DNA of 64,000 bases from Patescibacteria group bacterium (lineage in GTDB: Bacteria; Patescibacteriota; Patescibacteriia; Buchananbacterales; UBA6539): assembly GCA_034003985.1 (NCBI GenBank), contig JAVEXP010000001.1:68924-132923 (forward strand), in the 5' to 3' direction. Positions 29,486 through 62,634 of this stretch are shown in pieces. The stretch's first letter is position 1; each line of letters begins with the position of its first letter. A program made the position numbers and the translations under genes. The notes below the pieces were generated by a model. The model saw only the letters and a program-made list of their open reading frames with translations, searched no databases and was not told the origin of the DNA.

Positions 29486-30354
29486 ACGCTTTCTTGTCTT
29501 TGATCCGGGATGCTGGCGGTGATGAGCGAACCCGGATCTGTGTTGGGCTGGATCCTGAAATCGCGCGGCTTCCCGTCTGTGTCAGAGGGTCTAACCCAGC
29601 GGAACGAGTGATGTCGTTTTCGACTGATGTGGCCGCTGCTACAGCGCAGTTTGCTTTGGCCTTTCAAACCAAGCTGGCCATCTGGCAAGCGGTTGGCGCT
29701 GAAGAACAACTGGCAAAACTGATTGCTTATATTCAAGGGCAATTGGGTCGGCCGGTGATCTTGGACGCCAACTATGGCGATGTTCCGGCAATATCCGCGG
29801 AATATGCGAAAGCCGCTTTCGATCGTTTCGACGCTAGCGCGGTAACGCTGAATGTCTATCACGGTCGAGACAGCCTGGTTCCCTGGCTGAAGCGCGGTCC
29901 GGAAAAAGGACTGTTCGTTGTCTGCCACACCAGCAACGACATGGCCAGTGATTTTCAGGACCTGCAGGTCAACCCGGTTGGTAATGGCGGCCATTTGCCA
30001 TTGTTCGTCCATTTGGCTCATCAGGTGCTGCAGCTGCGGTCGGACGACAGCGCAACTATCGGATTCGTGATGGACGAAGCATTCCCGATGCATATTACCA
30101 GCCTTCGGCCGCAAGCTGGTGACTGGTGGTGGCAGCCATCAGAGATTCCGTTGCTGATCGGGTATTCGTCGGGGCAGCTTGAGGAGTTGGTAGGGCGGGC
30201 TTCGTTCTATCCTTTCCTGCTGAGCTGTTCGCGAGGGATAATCCACGCTTCGGAGGAGTCGGATTTTGCCCAGGCCGCCGCTAATGCCGCCGAGGGCTTG
30301 CGTAACCGAGTCAACATGGTGTTGGAAAACAAGGAGGGATGTCGTGTCGGCTAA
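29482..30354 (+). CDS. Orotidine-5'-phosphate decarboxylase-like (type 2 / HUMPS family) with a non-canonical active-site motif
   Basis: 'ICVGLDP', 'VTLNVYHG' and 'VCHTSNDM' match type-2 ODCase blocks. The DxKxxD block reads 'ILDANYGDV', so the catalytic Lys is replaced by Asn and the Arg by Tyr. The ATG overlaps the upstream stop and has SD 'GGAGGTGA'. Confidence 0.7.
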   Translation: MNAFLSLIRDAGGDERTRICVGLDPEIARLPVCVRGSNPAERVMSFSTDVAAATAQFALAFQTKLAIWQAVGAEEQLAKLIAYIQGQLGRPVILDANYGDVPAISAEYAKAAFDRFDASAVTLNVYHGRDSLVPWLKRGPEKGLFVVCHTSNDMASDFQDLQVNPVGNGGHLPLFVHLAHQVLQLRSDDSATIGFVMDEAFPMHITSLRPQAGDWWWQPSEIPLLIGYSSGQLEELVGRASFYPFLLSCSRGIIHASEESDFAQAAANAAEGLRNRVNMVLENKEGCRVG

Positions 30355-30490
30355 CTCACAATCGTACCCCGGTCGACCCAGGAAATGCAGTAATGTTCCA
30401 GGGTCGAAGGCCTGTGATAAGTGCCGGAAGAACAACGGAACTTATTGCCAGTACTGCACCGCTTGGCAGAATGCCAGCGGCAAGAAGTAG
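30344..30490 (+). CDS. 48-aa zinc-ribbon-like Cys-rich small protein (GTG start)
   Basis: SD 'AAGGAGGG' lies 5 nt upstream of the GTG. The product is 'VSANSQSYPGRPRKCSNVPGSKACDKCRKNNGTYCQYCTAWQNASGKK', with CxxC...CxxC spacing. GC3 is about 64%, matching the island. Confidence 0.4.
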   Translation: MSANSQSYPGRPRKCSNVPGSKACDKCRKNNGTYCQYCTAWQNASGKK

Positions 30491-30507
30491 TACTACTACA
30501 TATAACT

Positions 30508-30556
30508 TTGACCCCGCCTTTGGATGAAATGAGGGTGACCACTGGCGGGTCTTTTT
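30508..30556 (+). terminator. Putative terminator after the small Cys-rich ORF
   Basis: Stem 'gacccgcc/ggcgggtc' with a roughly 25-nt loop is followed by TTTTTT. It precedes a short AT-rich, promoter-like spacer. Confidence 0.35.
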
Positions 30557-30667
30557 TATTTGATTTATTGACTTTTTGTCGATTTGTTAGTAAGTTTAGG
30601 TACTCGGTTTATAAATCGAGTGACAGTGCTAAACAGGAATCTACCGCAACGGAAAGGGAGATCAGCC

Positions 30668-31774
30668 ATGCCAACATTGACAGGTGGAACATTGTTACTA
30701 GAAGAGGAAGGTCTGGCCGGAATCAAACCCGGTTTGATCAAGCATGCACTGTTTGACAGTGACGGAACCATCTCGCTCTTGCGGGCGAAATGGGATCTGG
30801 TAATGGCGCCAATGATGTGCCGGGCGATTTGCGGTGAGGGAAACACAGTGCCCCAGGAAGTGGCCGAGATCGTTTCCGACACCATTGAGGAAACAACGGG
30901 CATTCGGACAATTCGCCAGATGGAGCTGCTGGTCAATCTGGTCATGCAGTTCGGGCTGGTGCCTGACGATCAGGTCAAGGATGCTTGGGGGTACAAGGCC
31001 GACTATTTGGCGGCATTGATGGTGCCGGTCAACGAGCGGATTGCGCGCGTTCAGTCCGGCGCTTGCAAGCCGGAGCATTTTATGGTTCGGGGGATTGGGA
31101 CTCTCCTGGAACTGTTTTGCCAAGTCGGAATCGACATGCGGGTGTTCTCCGGCACCGATGAACCCGATGTGCGACGCGAACTCGAAGTGCTGGGAGTCCT
31201 TCACCATTTCACCTCAGTTCACGGGGCAGCACCGGCGCTGAAGCCCGGAGAACCTGAAATCGACAAGGAACAGGTTCTCCAATGCTTGATGGAAGAGCAG
31301 GGGCTCAAAGGCGAGGAAGTTTTGATCATCGGCGACGGTCCGGTGGAAATCAAGCTTGCGCGGCAGTTCGGCTGTTGGGCCATTGGCGTTTGTTCGAAAG
31401 AGGGCGATGATCGCAAAGGCTATGATCAGGCCAAGGTCGCGCGTCTGACCAAGGCCGGGGCCCATGTGCTTATCCCCGATTTCAGCGACGCTTGCCGCTT
31501 GGTACGCGAACTGTTCAAAGTCGCGTCAATCATCGAGCCGGCCAATTTTCCGCTGCCGGAAGATGAAGACATGCTGTCGTTGCTTGGCTTTATCCGCAAC
31601 CAGGTCAGCAACGGCGAATTCAAGCCTGGCGACTTGTTGCCCACCCCGGAAGAATTTGTCGAGCGCTTTTCCCAGATCGTCGGGCATCGGGTTTATCCTG
31701 AAACCGTGGTCGGACTGTACAACGCGTCCGAACATATCAAGCGGCGTGACTATGACGGCTATGTGATTGTCTAA
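30668..31774 (+). CDS. HAD superfamily hydrolase (subfamily IA-like phosphatase) with a roughly 150-aa C-terminal extension
   Basis: The ATG has SD 'AAGGGAG'. 'ALFDSDGTIS' is motif I (DxDGT). 'SGTD' is motif II. 'IIGDGPVE' is motif IV. Confidence 0.7.
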   Translation: MPTLTGGTLLLEEEGLAGIKPGLIKHALFDSDGTISLLRAKWDLVMAPMMCRAICGEGNTVPQEVAEIVSDTIEETTGIRTIRQMELLVNLVMQFGLVPDDQVKDAWGYKADYLAALMVPVNERIARVQSGACKPEHFMVRGIGTLLELFCQVGIDMRVFSGTDEPDVRRELEVLGVLHHFTSVHGAAPALKPGEPEIDKEQVLQCLMEEQGLKGEEVLIIGDGPVEIKLARQFGCWAIGVCSKEGDDRKGYDQAKVARLTKAGAHVLIPDFSDACRLVRELFKVASIIEPANFPLPEDEDMLSLLGFIRNQVSNGEFKPGDLLPTPEEFVERFSQIVGHRVYPETVVGLYNASEHIKRRDYDGYVIV

Positions 31775-31786
31775 GGGGGGGGCAAA

Positions 31787-31912
31787 ATGAAGCCGCTTGT
31801 TCAGCGTTCAGCGGAATTGCCGCTGACTATTCAATTTATATTCATCGCAGTAACGGTGGTTTTGTTGGCAGTAATCTTGCTGCCGGCAATTGTCCGATCG
31901 TTGGGTGACTGA
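31787..31912 (+). CDS. 41-aa hydrophobic peptide (possible small membrane protein)
   Basis: 'MKPLVQRSAELPLTIQFIFIAVTVVLLAVILLPAIVRSLGD'. It is preceded by a G8 homopolymer and has GC-rich codon usage. Confidence 0.3.
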   Translation: MKPLVQRSAELPLTIQFIFIAVTVVLLAVILLPAIVRSLGD

Positions 31913-32035
31913 TAGTAATTCAACGAACAAACCGTGACAACCCGTTATTTGCTGGGGCCTTGACCGTGCGTCGAGGCTCGTTTTTTTACATTTTGGAAAT
32001 TTTTGTTTGGGTTTAATCTGTGTTAAAATAAGTTT

Positions 32036-58631: not shown

Positions 58632-60194
58632 TTACAGGCCCAGAATAATCGGGGATGAGAACGAGGGCAGGGTGCTACCGTCGTCCATCGTCACCCGCCA
58701 GCCGCTATTGAATTGCGGTTGGCCAAAGAGCGTGGGGTCGAAAATACCCAGCGGACCGCTGCGATGCAGGTCGGTCCAGATGAAGTAAGCCTGGGAAGCT
58801 GCTTCATCGTAGGTGGCCGGCAAGGGGGCGGGGAAAGACTGGTCCCCGACCAGGTTGGTGACGATCGCGGCGTCGGCCTGGCCGGGTGGAATATTCAAAT
58901 CGGCCATCAGCCAGAGCCGTTCGCCTTGATCAATCTGACCGTCAGGAATCACTTGCGGCTCCAAATCAACGATGACCAAGCCGTCGGCATCAAGCTGGCC
59001 GGTGCCAACCACACCCTGAAATTCGCGCCAGACGCGAAAGTTGCTCGCGGTCACATGCTGCGTCTGGACCTTGAAGGTCAGGCGGCAGAGTGCCAAATCG
59101 TCCCAGCCGCCGTTGGTGACGGCGAGCGGGAAGAGGATTTGGTTGTTGATATGGCCAACAACCAGGCGCGCGCCATGCAGCGGCAAGATGCTGACTATGG
59201 GCACACTCTGAAAAACAGTGAACTGCCCTGAGGTTGCCTGGCCAATCCCACCTAAGAGCTGGTTCGAATCCAGCCCGCGTCCGACAATCTCTTCTCCGGG
59301 CACGAAAACCGTGAAACCTTGGCCGGATTCGGCGGGGCCAGTCTCGCAATCGCCCGTCTCCACCTTGATCGTGAAGTGCTCGGGTACTCCGGGCTGGAGA
59401 ACCAGCGGTTCGGCAAAGTTGACTACCGCGCTGCCAGCCGTCAAAGGTATTGGCTCTTCCCAAGAGTCGTCGGTGCTGGGGACAGCCGAACCCAGGAAGT
59501 CGGCGCCGTGATAGACACTGACTTGCCCGATTTGATCCGGCCCGCCATCGTTGACTTTACTGAAGTAGATTGGCAAGCCGCTGATTTCCACTGGTTCGCG
59601 TTCGGCATCAAGGGCGACTTCCAGGATGCTGATTCCGGAAGTGTTGGCGGGTAAAAGCCCGGATCGGGGAGAGTTGCCGCCGGTACCGACATTAATTTCA
59701 CCGCCGGCGACCACTTGAATGATCGGTCCAAACTGAATCAGCTCCGGCGATTCCTGACTCATTCCGGCGACCATTGAGGTGGACGCCTGAATAGCGCATT
59801 CCATTGCCGAGGTGGCAATATCGCCGATCAGTTGGGCAGTCATTTGCTGGTTGGCACTGAAGGCCAAGGGCTGGGCCAGCAGGAAGCGGATCTGGGCGAC
59901 GCTTTGGTCGGGGTCAAACAGTCCCGCGTTGGGATCGTTGACGGTTTGTGCCAGCTCGCCGTCAATCAGCAAGCCGACATTGGCCAGAACATTGACCCCG
60001 GCGCCATTGACATTGACTCCGAAAGTCAGTTGGGAAAGGGTTGTCGGGCTTTTGTCGCCGTTGAGCTGCAGGTCCAGCAGGACAATGCCTTGCGAGCCGG
60101 CAATCACGGTGAAACCCTGGGTGGCGGTAATGGTCACGGTCACACAACCGGCCAATACTACACTCATCAGAACCAGAATCAAAGACTTACGCAT
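58632..60194 (-). CDS. Large secreted lipoprotein of unknown function (GC-rich gene, about 60% GC)
   Basis: The ATG at 60194 has SD 'AAGGAGA'. 'MRKSLILVLMSVVLAGCVTV' is the lipobox. It is Gly/Val/Thr-rich and beta-rich in composition. Confidence 0.5.
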   Translation of the reverse strand: MRKSLILVLMSVVLAGCVTVTITATQGFTVIAGSQGIVLLDLQLNGDKSPTTLSQLTFGVNVNGAGVNVLANVGLLIDGELAQTVNDPNAGLFDPDQSVAQIRFLLAQPLAFSANQQMTAQLIGDIATSAMECAIQASTSMVAGMSQESPELIQFGPIIQVVAGGEINVGTGGNSPRSGLLPANTSGISILEVALDAEREPVEISGLPIYFSKVNDGGPDQIGQVSVYHGADFLGSAVPSTDDSWEEPIPLTAGSAVVNFAEPLVLQPGVPEHFTIKVETGDCETGPAESGQGFTVFVPGEEIVGRGLDSNQLLGGIGQATSGQFTVFQSVPIVSILPLHGARLVVGHINNQILFPLAVTNGGWDDLALCRLTFKVQTQHVTASNFRVWREFQGVVGTGQLDADGLVIVDLEPQVIPDGQIDQGERLWLMADLNIPPGQADAAIVTNLVGDQSFPAPLPATYDEAASQAYFIWTDLHRSGPLGIFDPTLFGQPQFNSGWRVTMDDGSTLPSFSSPIILGL

Positions 60195-60362
60195 GCCACT
60201 TCTCCTTCTTGTTGGCATATTCCATTGTAGGGAACACAAAATTGTACTCATTTTGAGCACCTCAAAACATACCATAAAATATGATTTTTGTCAATAATTA
60301 TGCTTGAATTAACCCGGTTTTTTTGCTATTTTTAAATAGTTGAAACTAAATAATTAGCTAAA

Positions 60363-62498
60363 ATGAAATACAAAATTATTGTTTTTGGTTGCGGTTTTAA
60401 CCAGATTGATGCTGAACGGGCCGCGGCTGTTTTGGAAAAAATTGGCTACCAGTCTACGGAGAAAGATTTTGAGACTGACTTGTTTTTGGTGCTGGCTTGC
60501 TCCGTTCGTCAGTCGGCCATTGACCGGGTGATGGGGCTGGAACACAGATTTAATCAGATTAAAAAGACCCGGCCGATAATTACTTTATTGTCCGGTTGTG
60601 TATTGCCAACTGACAAATCAAAAATGAGCAAGTTTTTTGATATTGTTTTTCCGATTAATGATTTAGTTAAACTGCCGGTAATGTTGGCTCAAAAATCTTT
60701 GGATTTACCGACTGATTATTTGAAAGTTCGGCCAAGCTATCGTTCAACTTTTCAGGCCTCGGTGCCGGTCATTAATGGCTGTAATAATTTTTGTACTTAT
60801 TGCGCCGTGCCTTATGTTCGGGGAAGGGAAAAATCCAGAAAGGCCAAAGATGTTTTGGCCGAATGCCAAGCGTTGGTGGCCCAAGGATATAAATATATTG
60901 AATTGCTCGGTCAAAATGTTAACAGCTATCAAGACGGCAGGATTAATTTTCCGAAATTATTAAAGCAAGTGGATAATATTCCCGGGGATTATTGGCTGAG
61001 CTTTGCTTCCTGTCATCCCAAAGACATGTCGGATGAATTAATCGCAGTGATGGGCAAGGCTAAACATTTGATTCCCTATTTAAATTTGCCCCTGCAGGCC
61101 GGGGATAATGAAGTGATTCAGCGGATGAATCGTAATTATATGGTTAGTCATTATAAAAATTTGATTCGTAAAATCAGAAAAGCCGTACCGGGGATTGCTG
61201 TTTCGACTGATATGATCGTTGGCTTTCCCGGCGAGACTAGGACCCAGTTCAACAATACTGCTAAGTTGATGAAAGAAGTTGAATTTGACATGGCTTTTTT
61301 GGCCCGTTATTCGCCAAGGCCGGGGACAGCGGCAGCCAAGCTGGTTGATGATGTCAAACCGGCTGAAAAGAAACGGCGCGAAGAAGCGTTAAATAAGATT
61401 TTAAAACAAACGGCCTTGAAGAAAAACCAAGTTTTTGTCGGACAAAATATTGAAGCATTAGTAACCGAATATCGCCATGGTTTTTGCTTTGGCCGGACTA
61501 AACATTTCAAGAATATTAAGTTTAAAAGCGAAGTTGATTTAACCGGCCAACTAGTGCTGGTAAAAGTTACCAGCTGTTATTCCTGGGGATTGCGTGGCGA
61601 GCTGCCTAAGGTGGTGGTAATTTTGGGCACGACTTCGGCGGGCAAGACCAGCTTGGCCGTTAAGCTAGCCCGTAAGTTTAAGGGCGAGATTATTTCGGCT
61701 GATTCGCGTCAGGTCTATACCGGCATGGATATTGGTACGGGTAAAGATTTGGAAGAATATGGTAAAATTCCTCATCATTTGATTGACGCTGAATTGCCAA
61801 AGAACCAGTATACTTTAGCCCAATGGCAGCAGGGGGCCAACGCGGCAGTTAAAGATGTTTTGCAGCGCCAGAAGCTGCCGATTGTTTGTGGCGGCACAGG
61901 TCTTTATATTTCGGCGCTGGTTGACGGTTATCAGCTAGCCCAAGCCAGTGAAGATAAACAGCTTAGAAACCGTTTGGCTAGGCTGACTTTGAAACAATTG
62001 CTGGCCAGGCTGAAAAAGGTTGATCCCAAAACCTACGAAGTCATTGATCGGCAGAATCGGCGCCGAGTTCAGCGGGCGCTGGAAATTTATTATCAAACCG
62101 GAATTACCAAGTCGCAACAGGCTAAACCCCAAAAACCGCCTTATCAATTTTTGAAGCTTGGCATTACTTTTCCTAAAGAAGTGCTGAAGGCGCGGATTGC
62201 CAAAAGATTGAAGCATCGTTTGGAAAAAGAAGGGATGATTGAAGAAATTAAAAAATTGCACCAGCAAGGAGTGAGCTATCAGCGCTTGGAGGAGTTTGGC
62301 TTGGAATATCGCTGGGTCGGCCGTTACTTAAGAAAGCAATTGAGTTATGAAGAGATGTACAATAATTTGGAAAAAGCGATTAATGATTTTGCCAAGCGCC
62401 AAATGACTTGGTTTAAACGAGATCAAGAGATTGAGTGGGTGAGTGATTATCAGCAAGCTGAGAGGAAAATTAGAAAATTTTTGAGTGATAAAGGATGA
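60363..62498 (+). CDS. miaB-miaA: Bifunctional fusion of a MiaB-like radical SAM methylthiotransferase (N-terminal) and tRNA dimethylallyltransferase MiaA (C-terminal)
   Basis: The MTTase domain has three Cys (GC, 'LACSVR', 'SGCV'). The radical SAM motif is 'CNNFCTYCAVPYVRG'. The TRAM domain runs to 'LVLVKVTSC'. From about residue 418, 'VVVILGTTSAGKTSLAVKLA...ISADSRQVYTGMDIGTGK...PIVCGGTGLYISAL' carries the MiaA P-loop and motifs. Confidence 0.8.
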   Translation: MKYKIIVFGCGFNQIDAERAAAVLEKIGYQSTEKDFETDLFLVLACSVRQSAIDRVMGLEHRFNQIKKTRPIITLLSGCVLPTDKSKMSKFFDIVFPINDLVKLPVMLAQKSLDLPTDYLKVRPSYRSTFQASVPVINGCNNFCTYCAVPYVRGREKSRKAKDVLAECQALVAQGYKYIELLGQNVNSYQDGRINFPKLLKQVDNIPGDYWLSFASCHPKDMSDELIAVMGKAKHLIPYLNLPLQAGDNEVIQRMNRNYMVSHYKNLIRKIRKAVPGIAVSTDMIVGFPGETRTQFNNTAKLMKEVEFDMAFLARYSPRPGTAAAKLVDDVKPAEKKRREEALNKILKQTALKKNQVFVGQNIEALVTEYRHGFCFGRTKHFKNIKFKSEVDLTGQLVLVKVTSCYSWGLRGELPKVVVILGTTSAGKTSLAVKLARKFKGEIISADSRQVYTGMDIGTGKDLEEYGKIPHHLIDAELPKNQYTLAQWQQGANAAVKDVLQRQKLPIVCGGTGLYISALVDGYQLAQASEDKQLRNRLARLTLKQLLARLKKVDPKTYEVIDRQNRRRVQRALEIYYQTGITKSQQAKPQKPPYQFLKLGITFPKEVLKARIAKRLKHRLEKEGMIEEIKKLHQQGVSYQRLEEFGLEYRWVGRYLRKQLSYEEMYNNLEKAINDFAKRQMTWFKRDQEIEWVSDYQQAERKIRKFLSDKG

Positions 62499-62605: not shown

Positions 62606-62634
62606 AATCCCCTCGACTAGAGGGGATTTTTTGG
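62606..62634. terminator. Bidirectional terminator
   Basis: A perfect 9-bp stem 'aatcccctc-gacta-gaggggatt' with A/T runs on both sides. Confidence 0.65.

Follow-up and report, generated by a model that had tools for sequence, protein, structure and literature searches.

Positions 60363-62498 on the plus strand of a 64,000-nucleotide stretch of Patescibacteria DNA (the window) hold one long open reading frame (ORF) that resembles two tRNA-modification enzymes at once, MiaB in its first part and MiaA in its second. Is this a real gene for a single protein, and would that protein carry out both of the corresponding steps? MiaA transfers the dimethylallyl group of dimethylallyl pyrophosphate (DMAPP) to N6 of A37, the nucleotide beside the anticodon, in tRNAs reading UNN codons, which gives N6-isopentenyladenosine (i6A37). 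MiaB places a methylthio group onto C2 of i6A37 to give the 2-methylthio derivative (ms2i6A37), using two [4Fe-4S] clusters and two molecules of S-adenosylmethionine (SAM). Comparison with known enzymes makes it very likely that the window protein is a real bifunctional ms2i6A synthase, and the explanation that best covers the locus as a whole, a genuine bifunctional tRNA-A37 modification enzyme that came from a coupled gene pair, is likely.

The reading frame is 711 codons long and has no internal stops, beginning with ATG at 60363 and ending with TGA at 62496-62498. This ATG is the earliest possible start past the upstream stop, and the resulting N-terminus lines up with those of homologues in the alignment. 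The product (711 amino acids plus stop) is identical to NCBI protein MDX9892898.1, which is encoded on a 331,630-bp contig of a metagenome-assembled genome (MAG) named 'Patescibacteria group bacterium'. Run SRR25572339 has the identical protein as well, on a Logan contig of 17,977 bp that was assembled independently, and the 201 bases around the junction of the two halves are 100% identical between the GenBank and Logan assemblies. The continuous 711-aa ORF that an earlier note had read from the letters alone is therefore intact. No further copies of miaA or miaB were found in the 64-kb window.

Residues 416-711 (61608-62495) are, by profile, fold and conserved residues, a complete MiaA. The MiaA equivalog model TIGR00174 (NCBIfam) matches residues 417-695 over profile positions 1-285 of 288, including the helical insertion domain by which MiaA clamps the anticodon stem, with 252 bits for the isolated half and 248.8 bits within the full-length protein (cutoff 148.65), and the Pfam family IPPT is covered end to end (residues 450-687, profile 1-243 of 243, E = 5.9e-67). 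The P-loop GTTSAGKT (residues 422-429, 61626-61649) agrees with the pattern GxTxxGK[ST], which in MiaA binds the diphosphate of DMAPP. The catalytic DSRQ/IGTGK motif ADSRQVYTGMDIGTGK (residues 446-461, 61698-61745) agrees with DSxQ[VI]Y...IGT[AG]K, whose catalytic Asp we take to be Asp42 in E. coli. The best solved relatives in the PDB are the MiaA proteins of B. halodurans, S. epidermidis, and E. coli, and Foldseek superposes this half on tRNA-bound E. coli MiaA (2ZM5/3FOZ) with a TM score of 0.88 and a root-mean-square deviation of 2.3 Å over 304-306 columns. The module thus shares its P-loop, DSxQ/IGTGK motif, and full IPPT profile with the E. coli enzyme and with that of B. halodurans (2QGN/3EXA), but it lacks an independent N-terminus, its strand beta-1 following straight after the TRAM domain of MiaB.

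Residues 1-414 likewise make up an entire methylthiotransferase (MTTase) of the MiaB type, in which none of the six cluster cysteines is missing. The MTTase domain proper (UPF0004; residues 2-92, 60366-60638; Pfam E = 1.1e-13) contains the three auxiliary [4Fe-4S] cysteines C10 (60390-60392), C46 (60498-60500), and C79 (60597-60599). The radical SAM core (residues 135-302, 60765-61268; Pfam E = 6e-26, with a Foldseek match to MiaB) carries the CxxxCxxC motif as CNNFCTYC (residues 140-147, 60780-60803; C140, C144, and C147), and a divergent C-terminal TRAM domain occupies residues 357-414 (61431-61604). The MiaB equivalog TIGR01574 (NCBIfam) matches residues 2-414 at 357.4 bits against a cutoff of 355.3. 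The top solved relative by sequence is Bacteroides uniformis MiaB (3.6e-68 over residues 5-413, compared with 1.7e-41 for RimO), and Foldseek with an AlphaFold2 (AF2) model gives a TM score of 0.86-0.87 to MiaB (7MJZ/7MJW). The B. uniformis enzyme (PDB 7MJV-7MJZ) shares with the window protein the MTTase/radical SAM/TRAM layout, the six cluster cysteines, and an alignment over its full length. The window protein differs in that it continues covalently into a complete MiaA, in that its TRAM domain is divergent, and in that the GCQMN motif reads GCGFN. All the motifs that the earlier note had quoted (CNNFCTYC, GTTSAGKT, and ADSRQVYTGMDIGTGK) were found, and the layout it described, MTTase, radical SAM, and TRAM domains running into a complete MiaA, is borne out by Pfam, NCBIfam, PDB, and Foldseek. 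The E-values of the domain matches are well outside anything that chance would give.

The junction itself, placed by sequence, model, and homologue alignment at residues 413-419 (E-L-P-K-V-V-V; 61599-61619), reads ...SWGLRGE-LP-KVVVILGTTSAGKT. Only about two linker residues are uncovered by either enzyme profile (TIGR01574 and TIGR00174). Between the last conserved glycine of TRAM (G412) and the valine of MiaA strand 1 (V419), homologues have a spacing of 6-27 residues; the window protein has the minimum, and the short linker is kept within its clade. An AF2 run with a 107-sequence alignment of fused homologues gave a full-length model with a mean predicted local distance difference test score (pLDDT) of 93.8, a predicted TM score (pTM) of 0.88, a pLDDT of 97-98 at the junction, and no disordered linker, the last TRAM strand (409-413) being followed directly by MiaA strand beta-1 (416-422). 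Because the pTM of 0.88 applies to a protein of 415 + 296 residues, the two modules appear to be confidently placed relative to each other, as one rigid body. Sequence and Foldseek searches found no PDB chain covering both halves. A possible internal start at the junction, a Shine-Dalgarno-like AAGGTGG followed by an in-frame TTG, was considered and rejected, its product being without MiaA strand beta-1.

A homologue search of 5.8 billion proteins places the window protein in a family with the same architecture. All of the best 120 clusters (90% identity clustering) are fused proteins of 626-783 aa that combine IPPT, Radical_SAM, and UPF0004 and share 40-66% identity with the window protein, and the named clusters among them are from Patescibacteria (Buchananbacteria, Nealsonbacteria, Pacebacteria/Paceibacterota, and Parcubacteria). 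The earlier note had suggested a search for other fused miaB-miaA genes in the Candidate Phyla Radiation (CPR; Patescibacteria). All 107 fused homologues in the alignment keep, without exception, cysteines C46, C79, C140, C144, and C147, the P-loop residues G422, G427, and K428, and D447 and S448, while C10 is present in every one of the 87 that have an N-terminus. The invariance of catalytic residues across 107 fused homologues indicates that both halves are under purifying selection, and the alignment keeps the junction in frame across the family.

Gene order in other genomes suggests where the fusion came from. A GTDB scan was made with one genome per species and with our own ORF and BLASTP analysis of at least 80 listed loci; it is not a census, and the window's closest clade is not among the matches listed. 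Among the 80 loci listed, a single fused ORF occurs in one, a complete Ca. Nealsonbacteria genome (L002, 723 codons). In many other Patescibacteria among these loci, miaA lies downstream of miaB as a distinct gene in the same orientation, with ATGA-type 4-nt overlaps (L009, L010, and L011), a ATGAATAA overlap (L007), a miaB stop followed by the miaA start without a gap (L003), short gaps (L025, L001, and L008), or intervals of a few hundred nucleotides (L004, L014, and L064). The same order is found outside Patescibacteria in Actinobacteria (e.g. L071, L079, L055, and L074), Solirubrobacterales, Chloroflexi (L006, L075, and L028), and one Omnitrophota MAG, and in L006, L071, and L079 the two genes are in the identical frame with one stop codon between them. 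An 888-codon ORF over both genes in the Chloroflexi locus L028 was dismissed as spurious, being an out-of-frame run of high-GC DNA that is free of stops; the genes there are separate. The records of L005 and L010 are titled 'uncultured Gammaproteobacteria bacterium' yet carry Patescibacteria-like genes, and these binned MAGs may have been assigned to the wrong organism.

Split miaB-miaA pairs of Patescibacteria, Actinobacteria, and Chloroflexi are therefore like the window gene in order and orientation and differ from it in yielding two polypeptides where the window yields one. Such a pair is the likely precursor of the fusion, or else a product of its fission. The fusion probably arose from a translationally coupled miaB-miaA pair, whose stop/start boundary would have been lost to leave a single fused gene, and derivation from a gene pair in this order would account for the modules standing in the opposite order to the reactions. 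With clustering at 50%, the 150 nearest MiaA representatives comprise 8 full-length fusions and approximately 8 fusion fragments (about 10% fused), and the others are standalone proteins of approximately 300 aa with up to 57% identity to the MiaA half of the window protein. The earlier note's description of the fusion as uncommon consequently holds across bacteria and fails within Patescibacteria, where the best 120 clusters are fused, about a tenth of those 150 MiaAs are fused, and many pairs are adjacent or overlapping.

The TRAM domain is missing from some relatives. It has been cleanly lost from a set of fused proteins of 626-684 aa that looks monophyletic (P0061, P0084, P0104, P0100, P0062, P0136, and others), and it is also absent from the fused proteins P0089, P0098, P0075, P0092, and P0172 and from several standalone MiaBs whose genes overlap or adjoin miaA (L007, 2992-4035; L009, 2-976; L008; L014; and L025). 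In six fused proteins and the split MiaBs of L007 and L009, no Pfam match to TRAM was found at E ≤ 0.1. TRAM is an RNA-contacting domain in all characterized MTTases (PMC10702137). MiaB structures have tRNA in contact with all three MTTase domains, and in them the isopentenyl pocket is built by the MTTase and radical SAM domains (PMC10702137). With all three domains in contact with tRNA and a pocket formed without TRAM, loss of this domain would be easier to tolerate if MiaA supplied RNA binding, which hints that MiaA helps MiaB to bind tRNA. Descriptions of characterized MTTases invariably give them three domains, so the TRAM-less MiaB modules may represent a new minimal form of MTTase.

How might the two modules work together? 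The C-terminal MiaA module would use DMAPP to dimethylallylate N6 of A37 in UNN-reading tRNAs, giving i6A37, and the N-terminal MiaB module would then use its radical SAM and auxiliary [4Fe-4S] clusters and two SAM to insert the methylthio group at C2, giving ms2i6A37. As one rigid body, as predicted, the protein would fix a 1:1 stoichiometry and keep the second active site beside the first. Such proximity could favor re-capture of the same anticodon loop, with part of the tRNA possibly staying bound. This would be a hand-off and not a tunnel-type channel, since A37 of the substrate tRNA has to flip into each site in turn, and channelling of the small-molecule type does not apply to such a substrate. 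The 'substrate-channelling' of the earlier note is overstated: the substrate is a whole tRNA, and its anticodon loop would have to leave one site and enter the other. That the hand-off brings a kinetic benefit is, on the strength of the model and of the loss of TRAM in related lineages, a tentative proposal that we consider rather less probable than its opposite. Other tRNA-modification enzymes are built on a comparable plan. MnmC is a bifunctional enzyme that catalyzes consecutive steps. TrcP performs C-to-U editing and then pseudouridylation within one polypeptide (PMC9553926). Both resemble the window protein in having two catalytic modules that act successively on one tRNA nucleotide, and both differ from it in chemistry, folds, and tRNA position.

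Several observations weigh against the reading of the window protein as a bifunctional MiaB–MiaA enzyme, and they are taken up here with the explanations that compete with it. Since the record is a MAG and some relatives have separate overlapping genes, a one-base error, that is a missed stop or frameshift joining two genes, could mimic a fusion. Such an artefact, which the earlier note had itself raised, is extremely unlikely, given that the independent Logan assembly has the same protein and the same junction DNA, that base runs at the junction never exceed four, that over 120 clusters, drawn from many samples and the complete Nealsonbacteria genome among them, keep the junction in frame, and that LPKVVVILGTT also occurs in relatives at 60-66% identity. 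A different concern is that the N-terminal half may be functionally MtaB-like (making 2-methylthio-N6-threonylcarbamoyladenosine, ms2t6A) or RimO-like, in which case the halves would not be consecutive enzymes. The margin over the TIGR01574 cutoff is just 2 bits, the stricter MiaB model NF010916 is missed (333.8 vs. 606; NCBIfam), and the TRAM domain scores 17.5 bits, below its Pfam cutoff of 21. The TRAM region is still aligned, however, by TIGR01574 to profile position 436 of 437 and by the MiaB PDB sequence through residue 413, and the AF2 model has five beta strands over residues 362-413 that superpose on 7MJZ. The competing NCBIfam models fail by far wider margins: MtaB (TIGR01579) reaches 265.2 bits against a cutoff of 357.05, MtaB-like TIGR01578 214.7 against 314.7, and RimO (TIGR01125) 213.8 against 356.95 with an alignment that ends at residue 379, so that MtaB and RimO scores lie approximately 90-140 bits under the MiaB score. 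The model is 34% identical to MiaB, compared with 26% for MtaB and 24% for RimO, and the lasting linkage and fusion to miaA across phyla offers circumstantial evidence for i6A as the substrate of this half. A function other than that of MiaB is thus very unlikely, and the MiaB identity that the earlier note had given to the N-terminal half is upheld.

A weightier alternative, which falls only slightly short of an even chance, accepts both enzymes and holds that the fusion is functionally neutral: the modules would act independently, the tRNA would be fully released between steps, and the join would be a by-product of gene overlap in a compact genome that provides co-expression only. Close relatives variously have the two genes split, overlapping, spaced apart, or unlinked, and a 4-nt ATGA overlap can be fused by a single-base change. 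Fused forms, which make up so small a share of the nearest MiaA representatives, are dispersed across a rough neighbor-joining tree of MiaA without support values, on which parsimony counts approximately 14 gains or losses. The closest GTDB MiaA among the matches listed (L005, 60% identity) is standalone, lies behind a divergent gene, and has no miaB that could be found within 3 kb upstream. The patchy fused state and the standalone L005 together suggest that fusion gives little obligatory advantage, and from its distribution the fused state is evidently labile. The minimal linker kept in the window's clade and the rigid arrangement of the modules in the AF2 model (pTM 0.88) speak against neutrality, as does the loss of TRAM in lineages with fused or overlapping miaB and miaA, which is easier to explain if MiaA contributes tRNA binding. 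The AF2 model of the TRAM-less P0061 (17-sequence alignment) is of low confidence (pLDDT 78.7, pTM 0.55), and the 64-kb window contains no tRNA or tmRNA genes and no above-threshold Rfam families.

A bolder version of the bifunctional enzyme would make MiaA and MiaB one machine with two active sites, in which MiaA docks the tRNA for MiaB and the anticodon stem stays clamped as A37 leaves the prenyl-transfer site for the radical SAM site, making TRAM dispensable. The coupling would then be covalent in the window and possibly non-covalent in the relatives with overlapping genes. We judge this version unlikely, though not negligibly so. If it were true, the TRAM-less forms would be the first methylthiotransferases without TRAM.

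A sigma-70-like promoter match, TTGAGC-16-TAAAAT (9 of 12 positions), which is a match to the consensus and no more, lies at 60253-60280 on the plus strand, approximately 83 nt upstream of the ATG. A terminator-like hairpin, CCCCTC-GACTA-GAGGGG, is located at 62609-62632 (the scan match is given on the minus strand), with an A-run on its 5' side and TTTTTT on its 3' side. It sits between the fusion gene and a convergent 131-aa ORF on the minus strand, and for this reason it is probably a bidirectional terminator. The divergent gene adjoining the fusion gene is a 547-aa ORF on the minus strand (58632-60275), which has a GC content of 0.56-0.60 over approximately 1.5 kb with sharp edges, compared with about 0.42 in flanking genes, and a lipoprotein-like signal (…VVLAGC…). 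Neither Pfam nor a PDB sequence search gave a match for this ORF, and its presence on the independent Logan contig rules out a mis-join. The gene possibly encodes a surface protein that was acquired horizontally. A second local rise in GC, to 0.536 against about 0.42, covers positions 30001-32000 and spans an ORF at 30584-31774 with weak similarity to HAD-type hydrolases and nothing stronger.

While the enzymes and the pathway are textbook material, the architecture is new, and it is already present in databases in under-annotated form. A full-text search of the literature found no description of a MiaB–MiaA fusion and no discussion of either enzyme in CPR/Patescibacteria; the fusion is also unmentioned in a review of i6A biology. 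The fused proteins are annotated as MiaB, as MiaA, or as 'hypothetical', and never as both (P0001, P0003, P0016, P0094, P0100, and others); MDX9892898.1 is annotated solely as MiaB. When a fused protein is named as one enzyme, a pathway step is silently lost from annotation-based reconstructions, and metabolic or tRNA-modification reconstructions of CPR can thus wrongly score one step as missing. The fusion does not overturn current understanding. It acts as a natural 'Rosetta stone', indicating tight coupling of the two steps in reduced CPR genomes, and a rigid natural MiaB–MiaA fusion would lend itself well to structural and kinetic work on the passage of an anticodon loop between consecutive enzymes. 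Its TRAM-less relatives, in turn, put the need for a TRAM domain in MTTases in question.

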